Under the pieces are notes generated by a model. It saw only the letters and a list, made by a program, of their open reading frames with translations. It was not told the origin of the DNA and ran no database searches. This document shows positions 2,834 through 63,906 of a stretch of DNA of 64,000 nt, piece by piece. Within the stretch, counting starts at the first letter, position 1. The number at the start of each line of letters is the position of its first letter. The stretch is from Eledone cirrhosa (taxonomy: Eukaryota). The stretch covers positions 97,650,001-97,714,000 of the forward strand of contig OZ024745.1 in NCBI GenBank assembly GCA_964016885.1. The letters are read 5' to 3'. The position numbers and the translations under genes were made by a program.

Positions 2834-3332
2834 CTGAAATAAAGCCCCTTGTTGTACAGCCAACCATATTACTATTCATTCTTTCACTATTATTACTCCA
2901 AGTATAACCTGCATAGGAATTCCCGCGAACTCGCTGCCTAATTATGGAAACATCTTGTTGAGTCAAACAAAGCCGTACGTTAAAACTATCCACGACGCAG
3001 AGTACTCCCAACATCTAACTGGATTACCTATAACGATAACTTGTTATCCCATGGATAACCATCATGTTGCTTGGTGTTTTTCCAACCTTCGGTTTGCTTT
3101 TCCTTCTTGTTGTTTACTTGTCTCACTCGCTTTACGCGTTTCACTTGTCCCAATAGCTTAGTTTAGTTATTGCTCGCACCAACCTGAGGTATCTGATTTT
3201 TAATGCGATGAAATACCAATGATGGTTGGCAAATCACTGATGAGGGACTAATTTTATAATATGTAATCCATGGGCAACCACGCAGTATTCCCCTCGCCTT
3301 GTTTTTCATATATATATATATATATATATATT

Positions 3333-3560
3333 AGTATCAGTGCTTTGAAATAACGATGTATGTATGAATGTATGTATAGTATATTTGATAATATACTGAA
3401 TGTTTATTTAAGAATATTTTGAAGACCATTCGCTATGAGTTTTAAAGTAGTGACTATGTGTTAGTGGTTATCAAGATTGCTTATCCCTCCGCTTCTGCCG
3501 AGACTTATCGAAGCTGGATTCTTATAGAATTCCAGTGATGTTTAAGACTGATTATTATAT
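3333..3560 (-). mobile_element. Degenerate relative of the 310/317-bp hammerhead units (families H/N)
   Basis: Shares ttttgaagacc..cgctat and attcttatagaatt blocks with 12591-13700 and 38770-39557; the ribozyme core is largely lost. Confidence 0.5.
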
Positions 3561-3568
3561 GTATGTAA

Positions 3569-3760
3569 GGGCGGTGAATTGGCAGTATTGGTAGAGGGTT
3601 GGACGCCATGCTTTCTAGCATAGTTACGTCCCTTTACAGTCTGAGTTCAAATCCCGCCGAGGTTAACTTTGCCTTTCATCCTTACGGGGTCGATAAAATA
3701 AAGTACCAGTAATGTATTGGGTAATTGCTGGCCTTGTGCCTAAAGTAGAAACAATTATTA
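3569..3760 (+). mobile_element. tRNA-derived SINE
   Basis: A-box TGGCAGTATTGG, B-box GAGTTCAAATCC, core ctttgcctttcatccttacggggtcgataaaataaagtaccag, tail gtagaaacaattatta; several copies in the window. Confidence 0.85.
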
Positions 3761-5021: not shown

Positions 5022-5069
<48 letters not shown>

Positions 5070-5073
<4 letters not shown>

Positions 5074-5612
5074 TATGTACACGTACATACATATATGTAT
5101 ACAGACGTACAGTAGTATGTATATATATACATACATGCACACATATATATATGCACGTATGGACTCACCGAACAACTACTATAGTGCTCGGTGTGTCTGT
5201 AAACAAACACCCGGCCGATTAGCCCACTCGATATGCAAATTGGGCTACTCAGTCGTTAATATGCATAAGGTAAGTATATACGTTCAACAATCTGGCAGGA
5301 AGGTATACGTTGCTGACGATAGCTAATAAGCTTGAAACTAGTACAGCGTTCCTTTGTCAGTGTTGAACAAACGAGCAACGATGGTTGCTAGACACTACGG
5401 CTTAATACGGGATGTTTGTTTACAGACACACCGAGCATTATAGTAGATATTCGGTGAGTCCATACGTGCATATATATATATGTGTGCATGTATGTATATA
5501 TATATACATACTACTGTACGTCTGTATACATATATGTATGTACGTGTACATACTTATATTTAAGTATCAGCCGTACTAAGAGTGGGAAATGAAATTTCGT
5601 TTCATTTTTTCC

Positions 5613-12529: not shown

Positions 12530-12591
<62 letters not shown>

Positions 12592-12748
12592 TGGATTAAA
12601 TGCTCTGAAATAGCGATATATATGTGAAGATAGACATAGAATATTCGAAAATATTCTGTATGTTTATAATAAACATTTTGAAGACCTAATCGCTATAGAA
12701 TAGAATACGTCACGTATTACAATTAGATTCTCGATAAAAGCAAGGGAA

Positions 12749-12791
12749 GTAACCTACGCGTTTCATTCTTATTAGAAATCTTCAGGATTAC
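12749..12791 (-). ncRNA. Type-I hammerhead, family H, copy 1
   Basis: gtaatc-CTGAAGA-t-ttct-aata-agaa-t-GAAA-cgcg-TA-ggttac. Confidence 0.88.
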
Positions 12792-13058
12792 ATATCCAGT
12801 GCTTTTATCGAGAATGACACAGCTAGAGACTTATAGAATACTTAGCTGTGTACAGGAACTGGTTTGAAAGAGCGGTTGCCGGTCCGGCAGAAATTAGAAA
12901 TTGGATTAAATGCTCTGAAATAGCGATATATATGTGAAGATAGACATAGAATATTCGAAAATATTCTGTATGTTTATAATAAACATTTTGAAGACCTAAT
13001 CGCTATAGAATAGAATACGTCACGTATTACAATTAGATTCTCGATAAAAGCAAGGGAA

Positions 13059-13101
13059 GTAACCTACGCGTTTCATTCTTATTAGAAATCTTCAGGATTA
13101 C
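13059..13101 (-). ncRNA. Type-I hammerhead, family H, copy 2
   Basis: Identical to copy 1, 310 bp away. Confidence 0.88.
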
Positions 13102-13529
13102 ATATCCAGTGCTTTTATCGAGAATGACACAGCTAGAGACTTATAGAATACTTAGCTGTGTACAGGAACTGGTTTGAAAGAGCGGTTGCCGGTCCGGCAG
13201 AAATTAGAAATTGGATTAAATGCTCTGAAATAGCGATATATATGTGAAGATAGACATAGAATATTCGAAAATATTCGAAAATATCTAATTGTAATACGTG
13301 ACGTATTCTATTCTATAGCGATTAGGTCTTCAAAATGTTTATTATAAACATACAGAATATTTTCGAATATTCTATGTCTATCTTCACATATATATCGCTA
13401 TTTCAGAGCATTTAATCCAATTTCTAATTTCTGCCGGACCGGCAACCGCTCTTTCAAACCAGTTCCTGTACACAGCTAAGTATTCTATAAGTCTCTAGCT
13501 GTGTCATTCTCGATAAAAGCACTGGATAT

Positions 13530-13572
13530 GTAATCCTGAAGATTTCTAATAAGAATGAAACGCGTAGGTTAC
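13530..13572 (+). ncRNA. Type-I hammerhead, family H, inverted copy
   Basis: Identical motif on the + strand. Confidence 0.88.
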
Positions 13573-13762
13573 TTCCCTTGCTTTTATCGAGAATCTAATT
13601 GTAATACGTGACGTATTCTATTCTATAGCGATTAGGTCTTCAAAATGTTTATTATAAACATACAGAATATTTTCGAATATTCTATGTCTATCTTCACATA
13701 TATATATATATATATATACATATATATATTTATATATATATGTATATATATATATATATATA

Positions 13763-13989
13763 TAGAAGTGGTTACACAACAGTTAGTTCACCATACCGAG
13801 AACAATTGTTTCACCTTAGCGGATCCTCAGCTCGTAATGGACATGGTTATGTTCCCTATAACCATGTCCATTACGAGGTGAGGATCCGCTAAGGTGAAAC
13901 AATTGTTCTCGGTATGGTGAATTAACTGTTGTGTAACCACTTCTACCTAACTCGTCCCATGGACTGAGTGCTCTACCACTACGGATATC

Positions 13990-23338: not shown

Positions 23339-23550
23339 AGAAGTGGTTACACAACAGTTAGTTCACCATACCGAGAACAATTGTTTCACCTTCGCGGATC
23401 TTCAGCTCGGGGCATCCCGAGCTGAAGATCCGCGAAAGTGAAACAATTGTTCTCGGTATGGTGAACTAACTGTTGTGTAACCACTTCCACCTAACTCGTC
23501 CCTTGAACTGAGTGCTTTACCACTACGGATATTACCTTCCAGTGTTCCAC

Positions 23551-26220: not shown

Positions 26221-26800
26221 TATATGGTTCGTTGATTATTCAACGAATTCAGTTTTACAATAGATTAGAAACACTCGTCAGTATTTATCTGGAGTATCTA
26301 TATTATTCCTGCCACTACAGGAATTGATGATTCAAGTACCTTAGCGGTATGCCGCATATCCAATCTCTTATATATTTTATCTGATGAAAACGTACTGAAA
26401 CGCCATTGTACCTTTGAAATATGTATAATAAAATATATACTTTGGTTATGATATTTCTCATTTATTAATATTTTGAATAATATTATATATATATATATAT
26501 CATGAATCAAAACATATCAACATATCATATGATGAGAATTTTGTATTTCTCAATAAGCAAGCTCAATGCACTTTATCCAGAGCCATAATAACCAAATGAA
26601 AAAGATATATGTATATTCACCAATCTTATTTCTAGCGGAGTTATCGCCCACCTTGTTGATAACTATTTGCCTTGGGTTTAACGGGATTTCACCATGTGCT
26701 TCTAAGCATCACGGTCACTATGAACTTAGCTGTGGATAGTGGCAGGTATATTGATTTATTTACCATCTTCATCCTATATTTCCTTTAGAATGGTGAGACT

Positions 26801-27251: not shown

Positions 27252-27296
27252 AGTCATAGTTCTTTCGTCACACACTCTGTGACCTCTTCAGTGACT
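27252..27296 (-). ncRNA. Type-I hammerhead, family M, 200 nt downstream of the PLE endonuclease stop
   Basis: agtca-CTGAAGA-g-gtcac-agagtgt-gtgac-GAAA-gaac-TA-tgact. Confidence 0.85.
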
Positions 27297-27496
27297 GGGG
27301 ATTCCTTTCTTTGTTTCTGTGCCTCTCCTTTGTTCTGTCCTACGCCATTTTGTTTCTGTGTGTGTGTTGTGTGTTCAGTCTGCGCATGCGCCACATCCGG
27401 GTGTCTGTGTGTGTTTATGTTCATTTATTTATTTGTTTATTTACATGTTACTGGTTGGTTGTTTGTTCTATGTGTGTGTGTGTTTTCATTTTGTCC

Positions 27497-28079
27497 TTAA
27501 TTGTAAGTTGTGATGTTGCTGTTCCACTCATATTTTCTATTTAATTTTGGTTGTAATTCTTTTATGTTTATTGCCTCTGTAATTTGTCTAAACATTGCGT
27601 CTTTTCTGTGTGTAGATTCTATTTTTATTTCTATGTTCTCTAATTTACTCTTGTGTTCTATTTTAGCATGTTGGTAGAGTACAGATGATTCTTTATTATC
27701 TTGAAGGTCTCGCCAGTGTTCATTTATCCGTTCCCCTACACTACGAGCTGTCTCACCTATGTACACTATATTTTTATCTCTACATTGTCCTTCAGTACAT
27801 CTTATGCTATACACTACATTTCTAGTTTTACAGTTAATATGGGGGCTTATTTTACAGGTTATACATTTCTTATCTATACATGAGGGTCTTTGAAAAGGGT
27901 ATGCCTTGCTAATAAGTGTTTTTACGGAGGTACCTTGTCTTTCTACTATCTTAATATTGAGTTTATGTTTATTTAGGGCGCTTCTAAATTTGTAAGCTAA
28001 TTCACCTCTAGGGGTTGTATCGATGAACATTACACTCTGGTATTTATTGCTATCATACCATGAGTTTATTCTATTAGCC
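27497..28079 (-). pseudogene. Penelope-like GIY-YIG endonuclease domain (Nematis-like), uninterrupted but 5'-truncated
   Basis: TP.GEL..IKIVER.G..PF..C..C..C..C..NVVY..C..C..YIGETARS..ER..EH..H..H..RQI.EA..I..LNRK.EWN. Confidence 0.88.
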
Positions 28080-28247
28080 GTATGCAGTTCTCTGGCTACA
28101 ATCAGAGAGATAAAATCAGAGTGTATAGAGGAGCCAGAACCAAATGGGGAAAAATGGTAAATAATGACATAAATGGGACCTGCCCCTTGTATAGGAGCAA
28201 ATTTTGGAATAGAATAGAAAGAACTAGGAACAAGGCTAATAGAATAA
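28080..28247 (+). pseudogene. Inverted upstream segment of the same PLE ORF
   Basis: MQFSGY..G.CPLYRS..W..KANRI joins in frame to ANRINSWY of the minus-strand ORF; 14-nt overlap ggctaatagaataa. Confidence 0.75.
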
Positions 28248-28252
28248 TGGAT

Positions 28253-28670
28253 CCCTTTTCCCCCTCGACAGATGCAGAGATCGTAATGTGATCTACCAGT
28301 GCAACCTGAGGACGGACACCTCCAACAAAGCTTATATAGATTAACCGCTTGTGACCTCAAGACCCGGCTCTACCAACACAGACATACTTTCCGAAACCCG
28401 GCCCGGCGTCACGCCACTACACTTTCGGGCCACATCTGGGACCTCAAAGATAATAATATAACCTACAATCTCACTTGGAGCTTACTGTCCAGAGCCAACT
28501 CTAACACGGGAGGACGCCGTCCGTGTAACTTATGCTCGGAGGAAACATTACAAATGTTGTTTTCGACGGACCAACTCCTAAACAAGAAAGACGAACTGGT
28601 AACTGCATGCAAACACAGATTGCGTAGGACTTACCTCGCCCTCAAACCCCATAATGACCCGGGGGAGTAG
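28253..28670 (+). pseudogene. Second Naiad-like PLE GIY-YIG fragment, frameshift near 28338
   Basis: CRDRNVIYQC..AYI / LT..LKTR..H..F..TTLSGHIWDLK..W..CNLCSEE..LLNKKDELV..CKH. Confidence 0.8.
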
Positions 28671-32938: not shown

Positions 32939-33808
32939 TGCTTCCAAAATCGATAAAATAAGGACCAGTTGTGATTTGAAATCAGAAAATAAAAAACATT
33001 CTGTGCTCTGTTCCACTGAATCTGTCATCTACCGCTTCCAAAATCGATAAAATTAGGACCAGTTGTGATTTGAAATCAGAAAATAAAAGAAACATTCTGT
33101 GGTCTGTTCCACCGAGTCTGTTATCTACCGCTTCCAAAATCGATAAAATAAGGGCCAGTTGTGATTTGAAATCAGAAAATAAAAGAAACATTCTGTGGTC
33201 TGTTCCACCGAGTCTGTTATCTACCGCTTCCAAAATCGATAAAATAAGGGCCAGTTGTGATTTGAAATCAGAAAATAAAAGAAACATTCTGTGGTCTGTT
33301 CCACCGAGTCTGTTATCTACCGCTTCCAAAATCGATAAAATAAGGACCAGTTGTGATTTGAAATCAGAAAATAAAAGAAACATTCTGTGGTCTGTTCCAC
33401 TGAGTCTGTCATCTACCGCTTCCGAAATCGATAAAATAAGGACCAGTTGTGATTTGAAATCAGAAAATAAAAGAAACATTCTGTGGTCTGTTCCACCGAG
33501 TCTGTTATCTACCGCTTCCAAAATCGATAAAATAAGGACCAGTTGTGATTTGAAATCAGAAAATAAAAGAAACATTCTGTGGTCTGTTCCACTGAGTCTG
33601 TCATCTACCGCTTCCAAAATCGATAAAATATGGACCAGTTGTGATTTGAAATCAGAAAATAAAAGGAAACATTTTGTCGTCTGTTCCACCGAGTCTGTTA
33701 TCTACCGCTTCCAAAATCGATAAAATAAGGACCAGTTGTGATTTGAAATCAGAAAATAAAAGGAAACATTTTGTCGTCTGTTCCACCGAATCTGTCACCT
33801 ACCGCTTT
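32939..33808. repeat. 96-bp minisatellite, about 9 copies
   Basis: cttccaaaatcgataaaa at 33035, 33131, 33227 and onward. Confidence 0.95.
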
Positions 33809-37296: not shown

Positions 37297-37576
37297 CAAA
37301 ACTTTACTTCAGTACTGAGTACTCTTTTCTCTCAGCCGTCAACAACATACAGATATACATATATATTTATATATAAGTAAGCACACGTACATATATATAT
37401 GCATACAGACGTACAGTAGTATATATATACATACATGCACACACATATATATGTACGTATGGATTTACCGAGTATTTACTATAATGCTCGGTTTGTTTGT
37501 AAACAAACATCCCGAATTAAGCCGTACAGTGTTTAGCAACCAACGTTGCCCTTTTTTGTTTAACACTGACAAAGGA

Positions 37577-37619
37577 ACGATGTACTAGTTTCAAGCTTAT
37601 TAGCTATCGTCAGCATCGT
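37577..37619 (-). ncRNA. Type-I hammerhead, family D
   Basis: acgatg-CTGACGA-t-agct-aata-agct-t-GAAA-ctag-TA-catcgt. Confidence 0.87.
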
Positions 37620-38065
37620 ATACCTTCCTGCCAGATGATTGAACGTCTGAAAGTATATACTTTCCTTATGCATATTAACAGCTAAGCAGCCTAATTTGCA
37701 TATCGAGTGAGTTAATCGGCCGGGCGCACCGAAGACGATAAATGGAAAAAAATGAAACGAAATTTCATTTCTCACTCTTAGTACGGCTGTTACTTAAATA
37801 TAAGTATGCACACGTACATACATATATGTATACAGACGTACAGTAGTATGTATATATATACATACATGCACACATATATATATGTACGTATGGATTTACC
37901 GTACTAAGAGTGAGAAATGAAATTTCGTTTCATTTTTTTCCATTTATCGTTTTCGGTGCGCCCGGCCGATTAACTCACTCGATATGCAAATTAGGCTGCT
38001 CAGCCGTTAATATGCATAAGGAAAGTATATACTTTCAGACGTTCAATCATCTGGCAGGAAGGTAT

Positions 38066-38108
38066 ACGATGCTGACGATAGCTAATAAGCTTGAAACTAG
38101 TACATCGT
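38066..38108 (+). ncRNA. Type-I hammerhead, family D
   Basis: Same motif on the + strand. Confidence 0.87.
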
Positions 38109-38370
38109 TCCTTTGTCAGTGTTGGACAAAAGGGCAACGATGGTTGCTAAACACTGTACGGCTTAATTCGGGATGTTTGTTTACAAACAAACGGAGCATT
38201 ATAGTAAATGCTCCATAAATCCATACGTACATATATATATGTGTGCATGTATGTATATATATACATACTACTGTACGTCTGTATACATATATGTATGTAC
38301 GTGTGCATACTTATATACTAAGAGGGAGAAATGAAATTTCGTTTCATTTTTTTCCATTTATATATATATA

Positions 38371-38463
<93 letters not shown>

Positions 38464-38654
38464 ATATACATATGTATGTATATTTGTATATATATGTATA
38501 TATATATATATGTATATATATACATACATATGTATGTATATTTGTATATATATGTATATATACATATATATATAAATATATGTATATATATATATGTATA
38601 TATACATATCTATATATATATATGTATATATACATATAGATATATACATATACA

Positions 38655-38758
<104 letters not shown>

Positions 38759-38769
38759 TAATATATATA

Positions 38770-39551
38770 TATATATGGATGTATATATAATGTATTTTGC
38801 AATACACTTTATGCTTAATTAAAAGCATTTTGAAGACCGTATGCTATTGTTTTAGAGTAGTGACAAATTCACTTACTTTAATCTCAGCAAACAGGGGAGA
38901 TAAGCCGACAAGGCCTTGTTTCGCTTTTGTTGAAGCTTATCAACAATCACTCTGTATAATCAGTTCCTGATTATTTACTAGAATTCTATAAGAATATAAC
39001 ATTAGTAATCTCAGTAGACAGGAGGGGTAGTTAGCCTTGATAAGCTTCAACAAAAGCGAAACAAGGCCTTGTCGGCTTATCTCCCATGTTTGCTGAGATT
39101 AAAGTAAGTGAATTTGTCACTACTCTAAAACAATAGCATACGGTCTTCAAAATGCTTTTAATTAAGCATAAAGTGTATTGCAAAATACATTATATATACA
39201 TCCATATATATATTGCTATTTCAGAGCTCCAATTCTAATTTTTAATTTTTGCCTGACCAACAATCGCTCTGTATAATCAGTTTCTGATTATTTACTAGAA
39301 TTCTATAAGAATATAACATCAGTAATCTCAGTAGACAGGAGGGGTTGTTAACCTTGATAAGCTTCAACAAAAGCGAAACAAGACCTTGTCGGCTTATCTC
39401 CCCTGTTTGCTGAGATTAAAGTAAGTGAATTTGTCACTACTTTAAAACAATAGCATACGGTCTTCAAAATGCTTTTAATTAAGCATAAAGTGTATTGCAA
39501 AATACATTATATATACATCCATATATATATTGCTCTTTCAGAGCGCTCCAA

Positions 39552-39557
<6 letters not shown>
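38770..39557 (+). mobile_element. 317-bp tandem hammerhead unit, family N (about 2 copies) with inverted 5' segment
   Basis: TTGATAA at 39037 and 39354; 38770-38943 is inverted; homologous to family H. Confidence 0.82.
39033..39077 (+). ncRNA. Type-I hammerhead with U3-A8 core (further copies at 39350-39394 plus and 38903-38943 minus, truncated)
   Basis: agcc-TTGATAA-gctt-caacaa-aagc-GAAA-caaggccttg-TC-ggct. Confidence 0.8.
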
Positions 39558-39642
<85 letters not shown>

Positions 39643-39661
39643 GTATATATATATAATATAT

Positions 39662-39747
<86 letters not shown>

Positions 39748-39976
39748 CATATATAATATATATATATATATATGTGTGTGTGGTACAAAACAGTGGTACA
39801 AAATGTCTTATTAGTTTCATGCTATATATTGGAAAGAAGCAAGTTTGACGTGTCGGGCTTAAGCCCCTTTTCAGGACTACAAAATAGAGACAGGATCACA
39901 ATGGAGAAACAAAAAAAATGTCCAGTAAAGACAAAGAAAAAAATACGATAATGACGAGGGAAAATAAGAAAGCCGT

Positions 39977-42423: not shown

Positions 42424-43550
42424 TTAACAGCGCTGCGATCGAATGTGGCTTTTTAGCCTAGTCAATGATCTAAAATGTCTTGCACAGAGTTGGCAACCAA
42501 AATATTCACTGGGAATAGCCGGCTGTGGTTGGAGTTCATGTACTTTTGCATGTCGTTTGAGCTCTCCTGCTGATTTACATTCTCTACCACATGCTTGGCA
42601 AGCATGATGAGTAGCATCTCCAACAGCAGCTTGGTAGTCAACCACTGGTCTCACTTTATGACTGCGAAGATAACTTTCGAGTCCAGGTTTGCTTAGGCAG
42701 AGTCTCGCACAGACGCTGCATATCAGCGCCATAGGAGGACCTTCGCCGTCTGGAAATGCAACAGCAATGCTCTTCCTCACATCCCGCTTTACTTTCTCGT
42801 ATGCGATTCGAGATGCCTCAAAGGCAACTTTCCTCTCATATACAGTCTTTCTCCATTTATTAGATGTTAGCGTCTTTCAAAGAGGCTTTCAAGGAATCTT
42901 TGGTTTATGTGGAGGTCGTTTTCCTTTAACTAACTCTCCATAAAAGAGTTGTTTTGGTATTCTAGAATCCTTCATCCTGGCAAGGTGACCACTCCAACGG
43001 AGTCGTTGCTTAAGTACAAGAGCTTCTATACTGCCACACAGAGAGCTTTCCAAAATCTCGTCATCACTGATGTAGTCCCTCCAGTGAACGCCACCATGGA
43101 TCCGTCTGAGACACATCTGATGGAAACGCTCCAATTGTTTAAGGTGGTGTCCGATATGTGACCCAGGTCTCGCAGGCATAAAGAACAGAAGAGAGCACAC
43201 ATGCCTTGTACACCTTTACCTTTGTCTTCTTGCATATGTCTCGTCGACCCCGGAGTCGCCTTTCTAGCTTTCCGAAAGCATCACTTGCTTTCTTAATCCT
43301 GAGTGGGATTTCATTATCAAGGTTGCTGTATCGATTGACAGTGCTTCCCAGGTAGTCAAACTGATCAACCACTCCAAGTCGTTTACCATACACATAGATA
43401 TTTGGTTCACTGTACTGCTTACCAGAGGCAGGTCGGTACATGACGACGGTTTTCTTGAGACTGACAGTCAAAACTAGGGCAGTGCAAGCATCAGAAAACG
43501 CATTCAAAATGTGCTGCATATCACTCTCTGTGTGCGCTACAAGATCGCAA
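42424..43550 (-). pseudogene. 5'-truncated RTE LINE (RT C-terminal half + three C2H2 fingers), frameshifted
   Basis: SLKKT..YLGS..RI.KAS.AFG.L..VY.A.VLS..LYACETW; RLRWSGHLARM..RIPKQLFYGEL; three CxxC..H motifs. Confidence 0.87.
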
Positions 43551-48905: not shown

Positions 48906-49285
48906 GAGAGAGAGGGAGAGTGCTGGAAGAGAGCGAGAGAGAGAGGGAGAGTGCTGGAAGAGAGCGAGAGAGAGAGAGAGTGATGGAAGAGAGCGAGAGA
49001 GAAAGAGAGGTAGCAGAAAGAAAGTGAGAGAGACAGATTATCATCATCTTCATCATCATCATCATCATCATCACCACCAGTATCATCATCATCATCACCA
49101 GTATCACCATCGTCATCATCACAATGATTCATCACCACCACCGCTACCGCCACCCGCCTCCTTCTTCTCCTCCTTATCATCATCATCATCATCATCATGT
49201 ACTGGGTGCATTTTATTGTGGCATCAGCATTATCACTTTACAACATGGACTGGCTGTATTTTATTGTAGTACTAGTACTGCAACC

Positions 49286-50722
49286 ATTACAGAGTGGACT
49301 GGGTGCATTTTATCATGGATCAGCCCTATAAACATTACAGAGTAGACTGGGTGCATTTTTTCATGGATCAGCCCTTTAAACTTTACAGAGTGAACTGGGT
49401 GCATTTTATCGTAGATCAGAATTACAGTATTACAGAGTCAACTGGGTGCATTTTATCGTAGATCAGAACGACAGTATTACAGAGTAGACTGGGTGTATTT
49501 TATCGTAGATCAGCACTACAGTATTACAGAGTGGACTGGGTGCATTTTATCGTAGATCAGAATTACAGTATTACAGAGTGGACTGGGTGCATTTTATCGT
49601 AGATCAGAATTACAGTATTACAGAGTGGACTGGGTGCATTTTATCGTAGATCAGCACTACAGTATTACAGAGTGGACTGGGTGCATTTTATCGTAGATCA
49701 GCACTACAGTATTACAGAGTGGACTGGGTGCATTTTATCGTAGATCAGAATTACAGTATTACAGAGTAGACTGGGTGTATTTTATCGTAGATCAGCACTA
49801 CAGTATTACAGAGTGGACTGGGTGTATTTTATCGTAGATCAGCACTACAGTATTACAGAGTGGACTGGCTGCATTTTATCGTAGATCAGCTCTACAGTAT
49901 TACAGAGTGAACTGGGTGCATTTTATCGTAGATCAGAATTACAGTATTACAGAGTGAACTGGGTGCATTTTATCGTAGATCAGCTCTACAGTATTACAGA
50001 GTGAACTGGGTGCATTTTATCGTAGATCAGCACTACAGTATTACAGAGTGGACTGGGTGCATTTTATCGTAGATCAGAATTACAGTATTACAGAGTGGAC
50101 TGGGTGCATTTTATCGTAGATCAGACTACAGTATTACAGAGTGGACTGGGTGCATTTTATCGTAGATCAGCTCTACAGTATTACAGAGTGGACTGGGTGC
50201 ATTTTATCGTAGATCAGAATTACAGTATTACAGAGTGGACTGGGTGCATTTTATCGTAGATCAGCACTACAGTATTACAGAGTGGACTGGGTGCATTTTA
50301 TCGTAGATCAGCACTACAGCATTACAGAGTGGACTGGGTGCATTTTATCGTAGATCAGCACTACAGTATTACAGAGTGGACTGGGTGCATTTTATCGTAG
50401 ATCAGAATTACAGTATTACAGAGTGGACTGGGTGCATTTTATCGTAGATCAGCACTACAGTATTACAGAGTGGACTGGGTGCATTTCATCGTAGATCAGC
50501 TCTACAGTATTACAGAGTGAACTGGGTGCATTTTATCGTAGATCAGAATTACAGTATTACAGAGTGGACTGGGAGTATTTTATCGTAGATCAGCACTACA
50601 GTATTACAGAGTGGACTGGGTGCATTTTATCGTAGATCAGCACTACAGCATTACCGAGTAGACTGGGTGCATTTTTTCATGGATCAGCACTACAGTATTA
50701 CAGAGTGGACTGGGTGCATTTT
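49286..50722. repeat. 47-bp minisatellite, about 30 copies
   Basis: attacagagtggactgggtgcattttatcgtagatcagNNNtacagt; period 47 (49501 to 49548). Confidence 0.95.
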
Positions 50723-51030
50723 AAAGAAATGTAAGGAGATATACAAGCAGAAAGAAGGTATGAGAAGTGAACTAATGTGAAACGTTGTGAAGTGAAGTGT
50801 GACGGTTTGAAAATGGGAAGAGAGGGAGAGAGAGAGAGAGAGCAAGGGAGAGAGAGGGGGGAAGAGATGGAGAGAGAGAGGGGGGAGAAAAAAGATATGG
50901 AAGATAAAGAGTAAGAACGGAAGAGATAAAGAGAAAGAAAGAGAGAGAAAGCGAAAGCGAAAGAGAGATGGGGAGAGAGAGAAAGAAAGAGAGAGAAAGC
51001 GAAAGCGAAAGAGAGATGGGGAGAGAGAGA

Positions 51031-53139: not shown

Positions 53140-56100
53140 CTACAGAACAATGTAGAGAGAAGGCCCATTTACACGGGCCATTCTCGCTTCTTTCACCCAC
53201 CTTTCATAAAACTGTCTGGGACCAAGCACTTCTCTCTCCATCCTGATTCTTCTTCCGAAGTGGTATCGGAAGAAGTAAACCAGGTGATGGCCGGAGAGAA
53301 AGTCACCCGACCTCAGACCTTTCAGGCGCGTCCACCACACAACCTCTTTCATCATGGCTATTACGCACAGAAAGACCGCCTCTGCTTCATTTCTGAAGGG
53401 AGGAGGCGGCTTGATGTTCACCACAGACTCGGCGGTTAATCGAATCGGCGCCACACGCGACAGCAGTCGTTCGACGTAGCCCCACAGATCGGCAACGCCC
53501 GGGCAGTGTACCAGTGCATGCGCAACGGTTTCCTCGTCGCGCACGCATCTGGGACAGATCTTTTTCGCGGGATCCCTGCCCGGGCGCCCGTGTCTGTAGA
53601 GCTTTTCTCGAACGGGCAGAGCCCCCCGGTAACACTGCCAGGCTAGGGACCTCTGGAAGTTGTCCATGGGTCCCGGGCCGAAAGTTCTACCGAACAGGCT
53701 GGCCAGTTCGTCCTCCTCCATGCCTAGCGACTCTCCAAGGGTGTCGTCGCCCCTGCTAGCCACCAACCCTCTATAGAATGTCGAGGTGGATTCTCCACTG
53801 ACAGTCGGGTCCGCTTGCCAGATAGCCGTGAGCGCCTGGGCACACTCAGTGTGCCAGTTGCCCAGTTTTCTCGGTCTTTGCTTCACCCAGGATTGCAGTT
53901 CGGTGAGCGAGACGAGCTGTGGGAAGGCTCGCCTCACAAACGGGGCCCACACCGGCTGACCGTTGAGGAATACCTGTAGATGCCGTAGCCTCAATGCGTG
54001 CCTACGCATCAACAGCCACGGCATACCCAGCCCTCCTTTCGAAGGGTGCTGGCAGCAGATGGATCTCCTCACCATGGGAGGCCGCTTCTTCCAGAGGAAC
54101 TGGAAGAGCATGCGTTCCATGATGGTGAGCTTTTCCTTGGGGCAAGGCACGACGGTCAGGCGGCAGTAGATGACGGACGCTATGTAAGCGTTCGTCACCT
54201 CCGCCCGACCTTTCAGTGATAGTTTGCACTTGGCCCACTTCTGGGTCAGCGCAAACACCCTGCTCGTCACCTCGCCCCAATTCTTCTCCACCTGGAGGTC
54301 CGGTCCGAACCAGACCCCGAGCAGCTTCACCGGGCCCTCCGTCCACCGCCCGACGACACCGTCTAACGGCATCGGTTTGCCCCTCCACGTTCCGAGTTGC
54401 AAACCGACTGACTTGTCCTGGTTCAGCTTAGCCCCCGTCAGCCTTTCGTATTCCTCCAGTAGGGTGGCGATCGCCCCGATTTCCGAGGCGTCCGCCACCA
54501 TTACTGTTACGTCGTCGGCATAGGCCGAGACCGCTTTGTGCAATCCCGGTTCCAGGGGTATGCCCCGCAGCAACTCCAACTTCCGCAGCAGTGGCTCGAG
54601 AGTCAATACGTACAGAAGGGAGGAGAGGGGGCACCCCTGTCTGATGGATCGGGTGATTTGAAACGGCTCCGAGAGGTAGCCGTTTACTTTAATCCTAGAG
54701 TAGATGTTGCCACTGTGCATGGCAGAAATCCAGCCCCTGAAAACGGGTCCGAAGCCCGCCGCCGCTAGCACTGCATCCAGGTAACCATGGTCGACCCTAT
54801 CGAACGCCTTAGATTGATCCAAGTTGATCAGGGCCCCACCAAAGCCGGGTTCGTAGCCAACCCTCTCTATGATGTATCGCATGAGGTGGAGGTTGTCGTG
54901 AATGGACCTGGACGGGATAGCGCATGTCTGCGCGTCTCCCACCAAACCACCCACCACAAGCGCCAACCTCTTCGCCAACACCTTGGCCAAAATCTGTAAC
55001 TCTGCATTCAGCAGAGTTATGGGCCTAAAGTTACTTAAGTCGTCCCCCTTGCTCTCGTCCTTCCTCACTAGCGTGACCACGCCCTTGGTCACAGAACAGG
55101 GAATTCTCCCGTTCTGTTGCCAGTTGCAATAGACAGCCTCGAGGAGTTCGGAGAACAAGACCGGCATAGCTAAATAAAGTTCGTATGGTAGACCATCGAG
55201 ACCCGGGGATTTGCGTCTGCTGCATTGGCTGAGCGCTTCCCCGATTTCAGTGGCTGTGATTGGCCCTTCGCAGCACTCCGCTTCGCCGCTCGAAAGACGC
55301 GGTAGACCGTCGAGGTATGGACCGAAGTCCACATCCCCGTCCGGCCCCCCGCCACCTCCGAACAGTCGAGCAAAGTGCCTTTGAAAGGTCTCGCACATTC
55401 GCTCAGGTTCAAGGATCACCCGTCCATCCTGGTCTCGCAAAGACCGAATGGTGGATTTAATCCCACTCTTGGCTTCTGTCACGCGGGCCCAGCTAACAGC
55501 TTTGGTCCCCTCGTTTCCTAAAGCACGTATTTTACTTCGGACAACGCAGCCTTCGTGCTTCGCGTCAAAGAACTGGCTCAATGCCGTTCTCGTCGCTAAC
55601 ACTCTGGCTACGTCTCCGCTCCTAATCGCCTCTTCTAGTTTATCTGTTAACTCCCTTTCCCTCCTATTTCTATTCGCCGCTAGTTCCTTACTGTAACCTA
55701 TCGAACTTACTCTAATCTCTCTCTTTAGAGATATCCACCACCTACTGTTGACGATCGCTCCCGTCAACCGCATCTTAACTAAGCTACTAATCCGGTTTCT
55801 GTAATCTTTCTTTGTCGGTAAGGACAAGTTCATCTTCCAGTAACCGGGACCCTGTCTATGCGTTCTATCAAGGTTGACCACGCAGGTCACTAATTTGTGA
55901 TCTGAATAGCCAACCATGATCAGTTCTGGACAACTAAATACGTCCCTATCCTTACTCCTAACTAAAAACCTATCTAGGTACGATCTAGATTGTCCACTGC
56001 GGTTTGCCCAGGTCCAGGTTGGCGCAGTTGGACAATCTAGTCGAAATCTATCGACCAGGTCGAATCGATCGAGTAACCCCTTGAGGCTGCTACACCCCCC

Positions 56101-56572
56101 TCTATCGGGACATGCCCCTGCATAGTCCCAACGCGCATCTAGGATTCCATTCCAGTCCCCCACTAAAAGCAGGGAACGCGACGTTCCTAGAAAAGTCTCC
56201 AGACGTTGGAAGAAGTCGGCTCTCTCCGCCCCGAAGGGAGCATAAAGACCGACCAGTCTGAAAGCCCCGCCTTCACCACCTCCGACGTCCAGCACCAGTA
56301 ATCGACCCCCCGGGTCCGAGTGAACAATCTGTACGTCGAGAGTCAGACGTTTATCCAGCAGTACGGCAACTCCCCCCCCCCCCGCCTCCGGGTTGACAGA
56401 GAGATGCGTGCATCTCAAAGTCATCGAAGGCGGGCGCCAGCTGTCTCACGCTGCTGATCCGACTCTCGCAAACAACCATCACATCTATACTTTGTGACCT
56501 GAGGTCACTTAGAAGCTTTGCTTGCTTCCAAGCTGAGCTCAGGCCACGCGCGTTCAAACAGCCAACTCTCAA
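53140..56572 (-). pseudogene. Tx1 ORF2 (APE endonuclease, RT, Zn finger); one frameshift in a G/C homopolymer at about 56372-56383
   Basis: CLNARGL..CES / GDWN, YLDRF, SDH; KSPGLDGLP, FRPITLLN, LDQSKAFDRV, RQGCPLS, YADD; CPRC..ET..H...C. Confidence 0.92.
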
Positions 56573-58880: not shown

Positions 58881-61800
58881 CTACAGGCTTATAAACAGAG
58901 AAGGCCCAATCACTCGGGCCATTTTCGCTTCATTCACCCACCTTTCAGTAAATTTACTGGGGTGCAGTGCCTCTCTCTCCACCCTGATTCTCCTTCTAAA
59001 GTGATACTTAAAGAAGGGAATCAATTGTTGTCCGGAGAGAAAGGCATCTGTCCTCAGTCCTCTCAACCTCGTCCACCATATAACTTCTTTCACCATAGCC
59101 ACCGTACAGAGGAAAACCGCCTCTCTTTCGTTTTTGAAAGAGTCTGGCGGTTTGATCCTTACTATGGACTCGGCAGTCAACTGTATTTGTCCCATACGCG
59201 ACAGCAGTTGTTCTGCATAGTTCCACAGGTCGCTTACGCCCGGGCAGTGTACAATTACGTGCAGAACTGTTTCAATGTCCTGCGCACATCTTGGACACGT
59301 CTTCTTGGAAGGATCCCTGCTGGGGCGTCCGTGCCTGTAGATCTTGCCACGAACCGGTAGAGCTCCTCGGTAGCACTGCCAGGCCAGGGACCTCTGGAAG
59401 TTGTCCATAGGTCCCGGGCGGAAAGTCCTACCAAACATACTGGTGAGCTCATCGTCTTCGACGCCCAGAGTCTCTCCGAGCACGTCGTCGCCCTTGTAAC
59501 GTACAATCCCTCTATAGAATGTCGAAGTGGAGTCTCCACTGATTGCTGCGCCCGCTTGCCAGAGGACTGTGAGCGCCTGAGCGCATTCAATGTGCCAGGC
59601 GCCCATCGTTTTCGGTCTTTTCTTCACCCAGGACTGCAGCTCCGTTAGCGAGACGAGCTGTGGGAAAGCCTGTCTCACAAACGGTGCCCACACCGGTTGG
59701 GGGTCGGTGAGGAATACCTGGAGATGCCGCAGCCTCAGCGCATGTTTGCGCATCATCAGCCACGGCATTCCCAGCCCTCCGTTGGAAGGGTGCTGACAGC
59801 AGACGGATCTCCTCACCAGCGGAGCCTGCTTCTTCCACAGAAACTGGAAGAGCATGCGTTCCATCTTGGCGAGGTGTTCACGGGGACAAGGCACGACAGT
59901 CAAGCGGTAGTAGATGACGGACGCTATGAAAGTGTTCGCCACCTCCGCTCGACCTTTCAAGGACAGTTTGCACTCTGCCCACTTCTGAGTGAGTGCAAAC
60001 ACTTTGGCCGTGACCTCGTTCCAGTTTTTCTCCGCCTGGAGGTCTGGACCGAACCAGACCCCGAGCAATTTCACCGGTCCGTCCGTCCAGCGTCCAACGA
60101 CGCTGTCGGATGTCATCGGTTTGCCTCTCCACGTACCGAGTTGCAAACCGACAGACTTGTCTGGGTTTAGTTTTGCTCCCGTCAGCGTTTCGTATTCTTT
60201 CAGTATGTTGCCGATCACCCCGATTTCCGAGGTGCTCGACACCATTACTGTCACGTCGTCGGCATAAGCCGACGCCGCTTTGCGCAGTCCCGGTTCTAGG
60301 GGGATGCCCTGCAACAGCTCCAATTTCCGCAGTAGTGGCTCTAGAGTCAATACATACAGAATGGAGGAGAGAGGGCATCCCTGTCGAATGGAACGCGTGA
60401 TTGCGAACGGCTCCGATAGGTAGCCGTTCACCTTGACCCTCGAGCAGATGCTGGTGTGCATCGCCTCGATCCATCCTCTGAACACGGGACCGAAACCGGC
60501 CGCCTTGAGAACCGCTTCCAAGTATCGATGGTCGACCCTATCGAATGCCTTAGACTGATCCAAGTTGATCAGAGCCCCACCGAAGCCGGGTTTACTACCC
60601 ACCCTCTCTATGATGTATCGCATGAGGTGGAGGTTGTCGTGTATGGACCTGGTCGGGATTGCATACGTTTGCGCTTTCCCTACCAGGTTCTCGACGACAA
60701 GCGCCAACCTCGTCGCTAGCACCTTGGCCAAAATCTTTAACTCTGTGTTGAGCAGAGTTATGGGCCTGAAGTTGTTAATTTCGTCCCCCTTGTTCTCGTC
60801 TTTCCAGATCAGCGTTACTACGCCCTTGCCTGCAGAACTGGGAATTCTCCCGTTCTGCTGCCAATTGCAGTAGACGGCTTCGAGGACGCCAGAGAACAAG
60901 TCCGGCATGCCTATGTAAAATTCGTAGGGTAGACCATCTAGACCGGGTGACTTGCGTTTCCCGCAGCGGCCCAGAGCGTCCCGTATCTCAGTGTCCGTGA
61001 TCGGTCTTTCGCAGAACTCGGCGTCCGTGTTCGAGAGACGCGGCAGGCCGTCGAGGTATGAACTAAAGTCCATTGCCCCGTTCGGCTCACCGTCGTTCTG
61101 CTCAAACAGTCGCGCAAAGTGCCGCTGAAAGGCCGCGCACATTTGCTTGGGGTCAAGTAGCACGCGTCCGTTTTGGTCTTTCAAAGACCGAATCGTGGAC
61201 TTGTTGCCACTTTTTGCCTCCGCCACTCGGGCCCAGCTGACAGCTTTCGCTCCTTCGTTTCCTAGAGCACGTGTTTTGCTTCTGACCACGCAGCCTTCGT
61301 GTTTCGCATCGAAGAACTGGTCCAGTGCCGTTCTCGACGCTAACACTCTAGCCGCGTTGCCACTTCTAAGTGCCTCCTCTACCTTGGCTACTAGTTCTCT
61401 TTCTATTCTGTTTTTCTCTAAGGCTAACTCTCTGCTATACCCTATCGATTCTATTCTAATTGCTTTCTTGAGAGAGTACCACCATCTATTGTTGACGATG
61501 GCTCCCGTTAACTGTTGCTTGACTAGTTTACTTATCCGTTCACTGTAAGCTTTACGTGCCGGCAACGACACGTTCAGCTTCCAGTATCCGGGACCCTGTC
61601 TATGTATTCTATCACGGTTGACTAAGCAGACGACTAACTTCTGATCTGAATAGGCAACCATGTGCATTCGTGGACAGCTTAACATATCCTTGTCCCTTTC
61701 TCTAATGAAGAACCTATCTAAATACGATCTAGATGTCCCACTGCGGTTTACCCACGTCCACTGTGGTGCAGTCGGGAAATCCAGTCGATACCTATCGGCC

Positions 61801-62327
61801 AGTTGGAATTGGCCGATTAAAGTTTTGAGGCTGTTGCACCCCGCTCTACTGGGACATGCTCCCACATAGTCCCATCGTGCATCTAGGATACCATTCCAGT
61901 CCCCCACTAAAAGTAAGGAGCGAGACGTTCCCAGAAAAGACTCTAGACGCTTAAAGAAGTCTGGCCGTGATTGCGATTGCCCGGTCGGGGCATAAACGGC
62001 CACCAGTCTGAAGGCTCCACCTCCGATACTGTTCACGTCTAGGACTACCAGTCTACCCTCCGGGTCCAAGTGTACTTGCTGTACTCCGACGTCCAGGTTC
62101 TTCCGAAACATAACAGCCACTCCACCTCCACCTCCTGGCTGACAGAGAGATGCGTAGATCTCAAAGTCGTCGAAGATGGGGGTTAGTTGCTGCCTGTTGT
62201 GGATTCTGGACTCGGTGATGGCTATCACATCCATACTGTGTGACCTAAGGTCGTTTAAAAGTTGGCCCTGTTTCCAGGGCATCCCTAGGCCACGCACATT
62301 CACGGTTCCAACTCGTAAACCAGCCAT
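58881..62327 (-). CDS. Tx1 ORF2, uninterrupted 1148 aa from MAGLRVG (APE, RT, Zn finger); SDH changed to SDQ
   Basis: TVNVRGL, ITES, GDWN, YLDRF, YSDQ, YADD, CPRC..H..HC. Confidence 0.92.
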   Translation of the reverse strand: MAGLRVGTVNVRGLGMPWKQGQLLNDLRSHSMDVIAITESRIHNRQQLTPIFDDFEIYASLCQPGGGGGVAVMFRKNLDVGVQQVHLDPEGRLVVLDVNSIGGGAFRLVAVYAPTGQSQSRPDFFKRLESFLGTSRSLLLVGDWNGILDARWDYVGACPSRAGCNSLKTLIGQFQLADRYRLDFPTAPQWTWVNRSGTSRSYLDRFFIRERDKDMLSCPRMHMVAYSDQKLVVCLVNRDRIHRQGPGYWKLNVSLPARKAYSERISKLVKQQLTGAIVNNRWWYSLKKAIRIESIGYSRELALEKNRIERELVAKVEEALRSGNAARVLASRTALDQFFDAKHEGCVVRSKTRALGNEGAKAVSWARVAEAKSGNKSTIRSLKDQNGRVLLDPKQMCAAFQRHFARLFEQNDGEPNGAMDFSSYLDGLPRLSNTDAEFCERPITDTEIRDALGRCGKRKSPGLDGLPYEFYIGMPDLFSGVLEAVYCNWQQNGRIPSSAGKGVVTLIWKDENKGDEINNFRPITLLNTELKILAKVLATRLALVVENLVGKAQTYAIPTRSIHDNLHLMRYIIERVGSKPGFGGALINLDQSKAFDRVDHRYLEAVLKAAGFGPVFRGWIEAMHTSICSRVKVNGYLSEPFAITRSIRQGCPLSSILYVLTLEPLLRKLELLQGIPLEPGLRKAASAYADDVTVMVSSTSEIGVIGNILKEYETLTGAKLNPDKSVGLQLGTWRGKPMTSDSVVGRWTDGPVKLLGVWFGPDLQAEKNWNEVTAKVFALTQKWAECKLSLKGRAEVANTFIASVIYYRLTVVPCPREHLAKMERMLFQFLWKKQAPLVRRSVCCQHPSNGGLGMPWLMMRKHALRLRHLQVFLTDPQPVWAPFVRQAFPQLVSLTELQSWVKKRPKTMGAWHIECAQALTVLWQAGAAISGDSTSTFYRGIVRYKGDDVLGETLGVEDDELTSMFGRTFRPGPMDNFQRSLAWQCYRGALPVRGKIYRHGRPSRDPSKKTCPRCAQDIETVLHVIVHCPGVSDLWNYAEQLLSRMGQIQLTAESIVRIKPPDSFKNEREAVFLCTVAMVKEVIWWTRLRGLRTDAFLSGQQLIPFFKYHFRRRIRVEREALHPSKFTERWVNEAKMARVIGPSLFISL

Positions 62328-63906
62328 GTTGGTGAAGAAAAGTTGGAGAAAAAGGACGAAAGGTGCTTTTCGTTTCCTGGAGATCGAGTTGTTCAATCTC
62401 CATTTGGGTGCTGGATGGGGTGTTGGGTGGGGTGGGGAAACCTTTCAACAGGACGCGGTTGATGGGTTTGTGGCAGGGGTTGCCCACGTCCTGTGAAAAT
62501 TTAATTTTCAGGTCTTTATAGGTTTCCATAGAAACCCTTATAAGTTTAAGGTGTGGAGACGATTCTGCCTTGACGAAAGTTTTGCCCTCCGTCTCCACCT
62601 TGGGGTTTTGGGAGATGACCTCCATCAAACTCTTGTTGTTTGTGTTGATGTATGCGTATTGTTGTTTGTGTTTTTGTTGTATTGTTTTAGTTTGTTGTTC
62701 ATCTGGGAGTTTTCTTTTTATGGTGGGTGCTTGTGTTTGGGGTGGTGTTGGTGCTGGTTTTGCTGATAGGGGGGTGTTTGACTGTGGTGTTGTTTGTGTT
62801 GTTGTTTGTGTCTGTGGTTTGGTGTTGGTGATTGGAGTTTTGGGGGTTTTGTGGTGTCTCTTTTTTTGTTTTTTGGATTTCCGCGGTTCTCCCTCTTCTT
62901 CACTTAAAGAAGGAGAAGCAGCTTCATCCGTCGATGAATAATCATCGTCAGGTGTGTGGGGTAAGGGTATGTGGTGTGGTGGTGGTGGTGTTTCGGTATG
63001 TGTGTTTGTGGTAGTGTTTGATGGAGTGGGATGGAGTGGGGATGTGTTCTTCAGGGGTGTTGTCTCTGTTTTTTCTGTTGTTGTTGGTTGAGTGTCTGTT
63101 TGTTTTGGTGTGGTTGTTCGTTTCGTCTGTCGTTGTACTTGTGGTGGTGGTGGTGGTTGTTTTGGTGTTGGTGTTGGCAATAGCGTTTTTTTTATGATGT
63201 TGCTGTTGTGTGTTTGTGGACAAGAGGCTTTTAGGTGAGATGTGCTACCACAGCGAAAGCAGTGAAATTTTCTTCCTTCTACCGAAATGTTTATTTTGTT
63301 GTTATTATCAATAACGACTCTTTCGGGTATTTTGGAGATTCTCTCCGGTTTCATTTGCAACAGAATCTCCAAATCGGTGCCCGCCCACCTTTGTCGAATG
63401 GATTTTCGTATCGAAAGTATTATGTCTGTTTCTGGCTCTACGAAGCCAGCCAAGATCCACCAAATGTTAATGCTTGGAGGTATGTTTTTTATTTTTATTT
63501 TTTGTGTCCTTTTCCCCATGTATGTAGGGAAAAAGGTGTATGCTTTTGACACTATTGGTGTCACAGAGTTTTTTTGGGCCAGTGTCTCGCTTTTAAACAG
63601 TACGGAAACACTTCCGTACTGTTTTCCTCGCTGGAGAAAATCGACATTTCCTAGAATCTCCTTGAAAGAATCTTCTATATCTGACTGATTAACAAATGTC
63701 GGTTTTCTTGACGAATTTGACACAGTCCTAAAAGTGACTGATCGGCGGTTTGTGTCTTCCTTTATTTCAAGGGGTGAGTTAATTCCAAACCCACCTCTTT
63801 CTTCGAAAGTTACAAATTTTCTCCCTTGCTGGAGCATATCTCTTGCGTTGGAGATATCAAGATTTATAAAATCTTGTTTCTTGTTGACTGTGTCAGCAAA
63901 AGACAT
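62245..63906 (-). CDS. Tx1 ORF1 (CCHC knuckle); overlaps ORF2 by 83 nt; true start may be further upstream
   Basis: CFRCGSTSHLKASC; colinear with element A ORF1. Confidence 0.87.
   Translation of the reverse strand: MSFADTVNKKQDFINLDISNARDMLQQGRKFVTFEERGGFGINSPLEIKEDTNRRSVTFRTVSNSSRKPTFVNQSDIEDSFKEILGNVDFLQRGKQYGSVSVLFKSETLAQKNSVTPIVSKAYTFFPTYMGKRTQKIKIKNIPPSINIWWILAGFVEPETDIILSIRKSIRQRWAGTDLEILLQMKPERISKIPERVVIDNNNKINISVEGRKFHCFRCGSTSHLKASCPQTHNSNIIKKTLLPTPTPKQPPPPPQVQRQTKRTTTPKQTDTQPTTTEKTETTPLKNTSPLHPTPSNTTTNTHTETPPPPHHIPLPHTPDDDYSSTDEAASPSLSEEEGEPRKSKKQKKRHHKTPKTPITNTKPQTQTTTQTTPQSNTPLSAKPAPTPPQTQAPTIKRKLPDEQQTKTIQQKHKQQYAYINTNNKSLMEVISQNPKVETEGKTFVKAESSPHLKLIRVSMETYKDLKIKFSQDVGNPCHKPINRVLLKGFPTPPNTPSSTQMEIEQLDLQETKSTFRPFSPTFLHQHGWFTSWNRECAWPRDALETGPTFKRP

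Follow-up and report, generated by a model that had tools for sequence, protein, structure and literature searches.

A likely U3-A8 type I hammerhead in a 317-nt repeat that Penelope-like enzymes may copy

Can a hammerhead whose core reads TTGATAA in place of CTGATGA be a working ribozyme, and what kind of element would carry it? The question is raised by a repeat, here called family N, in a stretch of 64,000 nt from Eledone cirrhosa ("the window" denotes this whole 64-kb stretch). Our best reading, to which we give a probability of roughly 0.7, is a type I hammerhead with a covariant U3-A8 pair, predicted to cleave itself after C39073 and housed in a 317-nt repeat likely copied by Penelope-like enzymes. 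A motif search of the window located TTGATAA at 39037-39043 and 39354-39360 on the plus strand and at 38937-38943 on the minus strand, which bears out the initial annotation in its statement that this core replaces CTGATGA in all three family N copies. The 7-mer on its own is not enriched in the window (14 matches, 20 expected), so it is the structured motif, rather than the 7-mer, that carries weight (Table 1).

In copy 1 of the hammerhead, three helices of 4 bp each surround the core: an open-ended helix I (39033-36 with 39074-77), a helix II (39044-57) that starts with G10.1-C11.1 and is capped by a 6-nt loop, and a helix III (39061-72) with a 4-nt loop, whose sequence is a perfect 12-nt palindrome. 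The stretch G12 A13 A14 A15.1 (GAAA) lies at 39058-61 and the triplet G16.2 U16.1 C17 reads GUC, with C17 at 39073; the helices of the best copy are intact, as had been described. Copies 1 and 2 both contain the invariant core (U4, G5, A6 and A9, G12, A13 and A14, A15.1-U16.1, and H17), and in both the Watson-Crick pair at positions 3 and 8 is U3-A8 in place of C3-G8. In copy 2, a G-to-A change breaks one helix I pair and another change lies in loop 3. The C3-G8 pair has been seen in crystal structures and confirmed biochemically (PMC3884650), and because bases 3 and 8 are Watson-Crick partners in the active fold, the double change from C3-G8 to U3-A8 is compensatory, just as the initial annotation had argued. 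At a score of at least 8, a hammerhead descriptor returned 12 motifs from the window: 10 with C3-G8, one of which (at 26381) looks like chance, one with U3-A8 (copy 1) and one with G3-G8. Across 20 dinucleotide-shuffled windows, a score of at least 11 was reached by no U3-A8 motif, one C3-G8 motif and one other.

Table 1. Features of family N and its relatives in the window
Feature	Position	Strand	Basis
Diverged relative N4, 26-nt tail, helices II-III deleted	3330-3600	-	55/95 identical in 5' part, 99/131 in 3' part
Family H, 310-nt unit, tandem + inverted + tail layout like N	12588-13707		Tandem repeat, descriptor, alignment
(TA)n-rich microsatellite, left flank	38359-38789		Tandem-repeat search
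Inverted, 5'-truncated unit copy, without 3' tail	38767-38943	-	177 nt, 99% to unit 1
Family N unit 1, 317 nt, non-coding	38941-39257	+	TRF period 317, 1.9 copies, 96%
Long outer hairpin, ribozyme at tip, arms about 39006-39029 and 39078-39101	39006-39101	+	MFE z-score, read variants
Type I hammerhead copy 1	39033-39077	+	Rfam match, descriptor, structure reading
Family N core U3-U4-G5-A6-U7-A8-A9, U3-A8 covariant	39037-39043	+	Motif search, structure reading; no variant among best 40 of 102 rows
C17, predicted cleavage 3' of base, GUC triplet	39073	+	Numbering by structure; cleavage inferred
Unit 2, partial tandem, ends in tail	39258-39558	+	96% to unit 1
Hammerhead copy 2, same core, one-mismatch helix I, loop-3 palindrome broken	39350-39394	+	Difference list; Rfam HH9 22.1 bits
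28-nt tail, Penelope-type, tandem end only	39531-39558	+	End comparison
(TA)n microsatellite, right flank	39557-39773		Tandem-repeat search

The best Rfam match of the N hammerheads is HH9 (RF02275), at 24.8, 22.1 and 20.3 bits, short of the gathering score of 52 (E-values of 0.001 for 24.8 bits and 0.008 for 22.1 bits, computed on an 801-base stretch), and they are not members of that family. Loop 2 and a GUUA stretch align with the model, but helix I is 4 bp long in N and 6 bp in the model, which makes the tertiary loop-loop contact, between the helix I bulge and loop 2, uncertain. At the gathering threshold, Rfam has no match anywhere in the 64-kb window, canonical-core families included, and a scan of positions 1-45000 at a wide E-value gave, among the matches listed (150 of 200), only microRNA and snoRNA look-alikes of microsatellites or hairpins.

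How much does the agreement among three copies tell us? The window's N copies are 96–99% alike, with 3 differences across the 174 positions that they share, and form one insertion, so they count as one observation rather than three events, and their agreement is weak evidence for U3-A8. The inverted copy begins exactly at U3 and hence is without the 5' strand of helix I, while the opening three letters of its core (38941-38943) belong just as much to the plus-strand unit, an overlap of 3 nt that represents a junction microhomology. Two different strand-switch joints in public reads map to U3 at 39037: one, 39037/38944, is the window's own junction and is seen in run X1 and in 4 reads of run X19, and the other, 39037/39098, is found in one X1 contig. 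On this thin support, U3 at 39037 is possibly a recurrent break point. A single event is also what one would expect of an inactive relic, a ribozyme whose role was lost, whose two transitions arose in a single master copy by chance, and whose family expanded all the same. Such a history would be helped by the behavior of one Penelope element, which inserted in vitro even when its ribozyme had been inactivated by mutation (PMC11167929), so that mobility need not select for catalysis.

The relatives of family N within the window allow a comparison over a greater distance. As the initial annotation had noted, the homologous family H has CTGAAGA, a C3-G8 core, which we find at three places (12785 and 13095 on the minus strand, 13536 on the plus strand). 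Its hammerhead has U10.1-U11.1, a variant also noted in PMC3088659 and PMC7229834, a GUA triplet and a 6-nt palindromic helix III; a constrained H fold was left out, as it imposed a monomeric helix III that cannot form. The copies of H are 99–100% identical to one another, which suggests recent insertion. BLAST places N and H at 73% identity over about 126–155 nt, and 185 of 306 aligned positions are common to both. The two cores differ at positions 3, 7 and 8 in the alignment and, when read by structure, at 17 as well. The 8 invariant core positions covered by the alignment are nonetheless all identical, against a background of 60% (0.6^8, about 0.02), which argues against a relic, as does the fact that both changes are exactly pair-preserving. 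The diverged relative N4 keeps TTGATAA (U3, A8) at the homologous position (3468-3474, minus strand), with an identity to N of 58% upstream and 76% downstream, and its letters just before the core are H-like, which ties the N4 and H cores together. Its loss of helices II and III would fit a relic. Since the other families in the window have C3-G8, U3-A8 is likely the derived state among the window's families, and C3-G8 may have been swapped for U3-A8 once in this lineage, before N and N4 split.

Would the RNA reach its active fold? In a ViennaRNA computation of secondary structure, which leaves tertiary contacts aside, the active 2D fold is 6.3 kcal/mol less stable than the ensemble, where the core is engaged in alternative helices. 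The MFE fold of copy 1 has U3 paired to the 5' strand of helix III, and that of copy 2 has A8 paired to the 3' strand of helix I. An active fold disfavored in computation speaks for a relic, and the Watson-Crick pairing of both bases in alternative helices could point to selection of U3 and A8 for that alternative fold and not for catalysis. A control with the canonical pair, however, is trapped equally, its active fold lying 6.1 kcal/mol above the ensemble, which means that the off state gains nothing from the swap; we reject selection for the off state on this energy control and regard it as highly improbable. The 12-nt palindrome offers another route to activity, as the 12-mer does not fold alone in computation and forms a duplex at -19.5 kcal/mol when copy 1 pairs with itself and at -12.3 kcal/mol when copy 1 pairs with copy 2. 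Because it pairs between copies without folding alone, a double hammerhead, a form known from metazoan type I motifs (PMC4209133), is in this model the likeliest active form of the N ribozyme. Most metazoan retrozyme circles have been reported with the ribozyme left free (PMC7229834). The long outer hairpin has an MFE z-score of -5.3, with none of 200 shuffles as stable, and read variants within it mostly preserve its pairs.

Variation among genomic copies was assessed in public reads, where all or part of the N stretch is present in 14 of the 21 runs listed; none of those listed as containing it is an RNA run, which has no bearing on whether it is expressed. Four runs were aligned on 38944-39200, using reads at least 80% alike: X4 leaves the core uncovered, the species label is the same for X1 and X19, and X5 bears another label and gives thin cover. 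These are RAD reads, which sample the copies unevenly. In the raw run X19, where the core is covered about 580-fold, no variant occurs at 39037, 39042 or any other core place among the best 40 of 102 rows, ranked as best supported, the smallest of which represents 41 reads or a 7% share, so that rare single changes are possible below this level. U3 and A8 are the prevailing state in the reads. A majority state would have been included in the best 40 of 102 rows, and hence the situation that the initial annotation had set against its own reading, in which most copies carry one of the two changes alone, is not found among copies at least 80% alike.

Among the same best 40 of 102 rows, the 8 places that vary within 39033-39077 all lie outside the 14 core places (post hoc P of about 0.04). 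A total of 23 rows fall within 39003-39100, 8 at unpaired and 15 at paired places; 9 of the latter keep or restore the pair, 4 are accompanied by a change in the partner base, and the remaining 2 disrupt a pair without such compensation. Compared by their frequency across reads, and not by linkage on one molecule, partner changes match in helix II (206/586 with 195/580 reads, 35% and 34%) and in helix I (102/554 with 91/569, 18% and 16%), and a further set lies in the outer hairpin (234/425 with 174/500, 55% and 35%). Changes in loop 3 that break the palindrome are present in 14–18% of reads. Two-sided helix changes at matching frequency speak against a relic, but the partner changes are subfamily alleles, each of which counts as a single event, and thus represent about three events, which weakens the case against a relic. 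The initial annotation had taken the compensatory double change as an argument for selection on catalysis; the three copies that it cited are one insertion, and purifying selection on the hammerhead fold is supported indirectly by the reads and by the comparison of N with H. Weighing both sides, we judge a relic to be unlikely, and retain a predicted U3-A8 ribozyme, the pair of which may have been kept because it preserves the geometry of the active site.

Which element carries this ribozyme? Penelope-type insertions are marked by tandem arrangement, an inverted truncated copy and a one-ended tail (PMC8557442, PMC11167929), and in both N and H a partial tandem is preceded on its 5' side by an inverted copy that is 5'-truncated. 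The one-ended tails of 28 nt (N), 28 nt (H) and 26 nt (N4) are slightly below the published 30–40 bp, and (TA)n, a target of Penelope-type insertion, is present as the flanks of N. Non-LTR retrozymes have a tandem unit of 150–450 bp (PMC7229834), occur as linear and circular RNA monomers, and are derived from Penelope pseudo-LTRs according to Li, Clavereau and Pollet (bioRxiv 10.64898/2026.07.22.740005). With a 317-nt unit in 1.9 copies, a type I hammerhead in each unit (slightly damaged in copy 2) and no protein, the host element looks like a non-LTR retrozyme-type repeat by its size, content and layout. No ORF of at least 120 aa lies between 38819 and 41195, and the N element is without the ORF for reverse transcriptase and GIY-YIG that an autonomous Penelope would hold between its repeats.

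Alternatively, the copies may be solo pseudo-LTRs, end pieces that an autonomous Penelope-like element left behind when its insertions were truncated. They would then have no RNA-circle life cycle of their own, and the ribozyme would be functional in the parent; this account and our preferred one overlap on the ribozyme itself. A tandem of only 1.9 units and a layout that fits truncated Penelope insertions would both be explained in this way, and there are precedents, as Schistosoma motifs are mostly single and tied to truncated elements (PMC4209133), and retrozymes and pseudo-LTRs are related (bioRxiv 10.64898/2026.07.22.740005). However, unit 1 directly joins unit 2 with no coding sequence between them, reads with loose ends ahead of 38950 run on into the 3' end of the unit, which fits a head-to-tail arrangement in other copies, and family H is head-to-tail as well. 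We therefore find the pseudo-LTR account doubtful, if less so than a relic. An autonomous partner for family N was not found in the 64-kb window. A Penelope-like remnant lies at 27285-28369 on the minus strand, with a 290-aa frame (27497-28369) whose match to GIY-YIG (PF01541, E 2e-4) is weak and falls slightly short of the cut-off. About 200 nt downstream of this frame lies a hammerhead of minimal type whose helix II is long; it differs from that of N, and the flank of the remnant has no BLAST match to N. A metagenome scan with the family pattern gave two matches, both by chance, in bacterial-looking coding DNA.

If family N is indeed a retrozyme-type repeat with an active U3-A8 hammerhead, cleavage after C17 would release 317-nt monomers from its tandem transcripts, most likely through a double hammerhead whose shared helix III is the 12-nt palindrome. 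Once circularised, the monomers could be taken up as templates by Penelope enzymes and re-inserted into (TA)n runs, a cycle that has been put forward for non-LTR retrozymes. Extending this further, one may tentatively picture a high-copy retrozyme family that is fixed for U3-A8 on a near-canonical scaffold, has a 12-nt palindromic helix III and is expressed as 317-nt circles, with its sister H and the intermediate N4 in the same genome. We consider this extended version rather unlikely as a whole; if true, it would offer a natural series for a catalytic base pair crossing a two-step fitness valley, and would imply that retrozyme censuses based on CUGANGA miss whole families.

The window as a whole is rich in microsatellites, and contains LINE-type ORFs and several hammerhead-bearing repeats. 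CTGANGA is enriched in it (41 matches versus 23 expected, reached in 0 of 100 shuffles), partly owing to the hammerhead families. Another C3-G8 hammerhead repeat family is located at 5066-5559, 37370-37786 (minus strand) and 37880-38330 (plus strand), with CTGACGA cores at 5313 (+), 37613 (-) and 38072 (+), a 6-nt palindromic helix III and an inverted arrangement beside (TA)n. A hairpin-shaped short repeat (13770-13938 and 23345-23482) bears a hammerhead per arm with an 8-nt palindromic helix III; its arm at 13878 has G at both positions 3 and 8, a broken pair. Two LINE ORF2s lie in tandem on the minus strand (53140-56445, 1100 aa; 58881-62444, 1187 aa), with endonuclease, reverse transcriptase and zinc-finger matches, and a 150-aa frame at 42424-42876 on the same strand has weak C2H2 zinc-finger matches and is possibly an exon. 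Homogeneous satellites are found at 49201-50723 (a 47-nt unit in 32 copies, 91%) and at 32940-33807 (a 96-nt unit in 9 copies, 96%).

How does family N relate to the hammerheads already described? Perreault et al. 2011 gave the first report of C3/G8 covarying to U3/A8, in several natural hammerheads (PMC3088659), and ribozymes covarying at 3-8 are active in vitro according to Przybilski and Hammann 2007 (RNA 13:1625), as cited there. As U3-A8 has been published in natural hammerheads, N is a new example and not a discovery. The same work by Perreault et al. describes both U3-A8 as in N and U10.1-U11.1 as in family H; the passages of the article that we cite do not name the hosts of its U3-A8 examples, and four 7-letter core spellings and "C3U" do not occur in its text supplements. 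Cervera and de la Pena 2014 came upon U3-A8 through a Schistosoma Penelope element and used a dedicated descriptor, with about 1,300 hits (PMC4209133). The claim in the initial annotation that such cores are invisible to CUGANGA searches thus applies to plain searches, but not to specialists, who already use a U3-A8 descriptor. None of the papers listed in searches of the openly accessible literature is a description of family N.

The closest parallel is provided by the U3-A8 hammerheads of the Cercyon-related Penelope elements of Schistosoma mansoni (PMC4209133), which share with N the core covariation, the type I topology and the Penelope setting, as well as a short helix I (4–5 bp) and opposite-strand pairs 100–700 bp apart. 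The S. mansoni motifs are minimal, with a helix II of 7–8 bp, an extra base before it and no real helix III, whereas N combines a canonical 4-bp helix II, capped by a 6-nt loop and not preceded by an additional base, with a palindromic helix III of 12 nt. Hammerhead_HH9 aligns well with N in helix II and loop 2, but N has a shorter helix I and a swapped 3-8 pair, and falls far below the model's gathering score. Metazoan non-LTR retrozymes, which have been proposed to be non-autonomous Penelope derivatives, resemble N in their non-coding tandem unit of 150–450 bp with a type I hammerhead (PMC7229834; bioRxiv 10.64898/2026.07.22.740005); N differs in its U3-A8 core, in a helix III longer than the usual 1–2 bp, and in a core that is predicted to be sequestered. 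Ribozyme censuses should allow U3-A8, as N reminds us. The general picture is unchanged, as the U3-A8 pair, its natural covariation and the link to Penelope are all published, and what N adds to it is one natural U3-A8 family whose scaffold is more complete than that of the minimal motifs in Schistosoma and which has a C3-G8 sister in the same genome, and hence a handy test case for how well a swapped 3-8 pair is tolerated.
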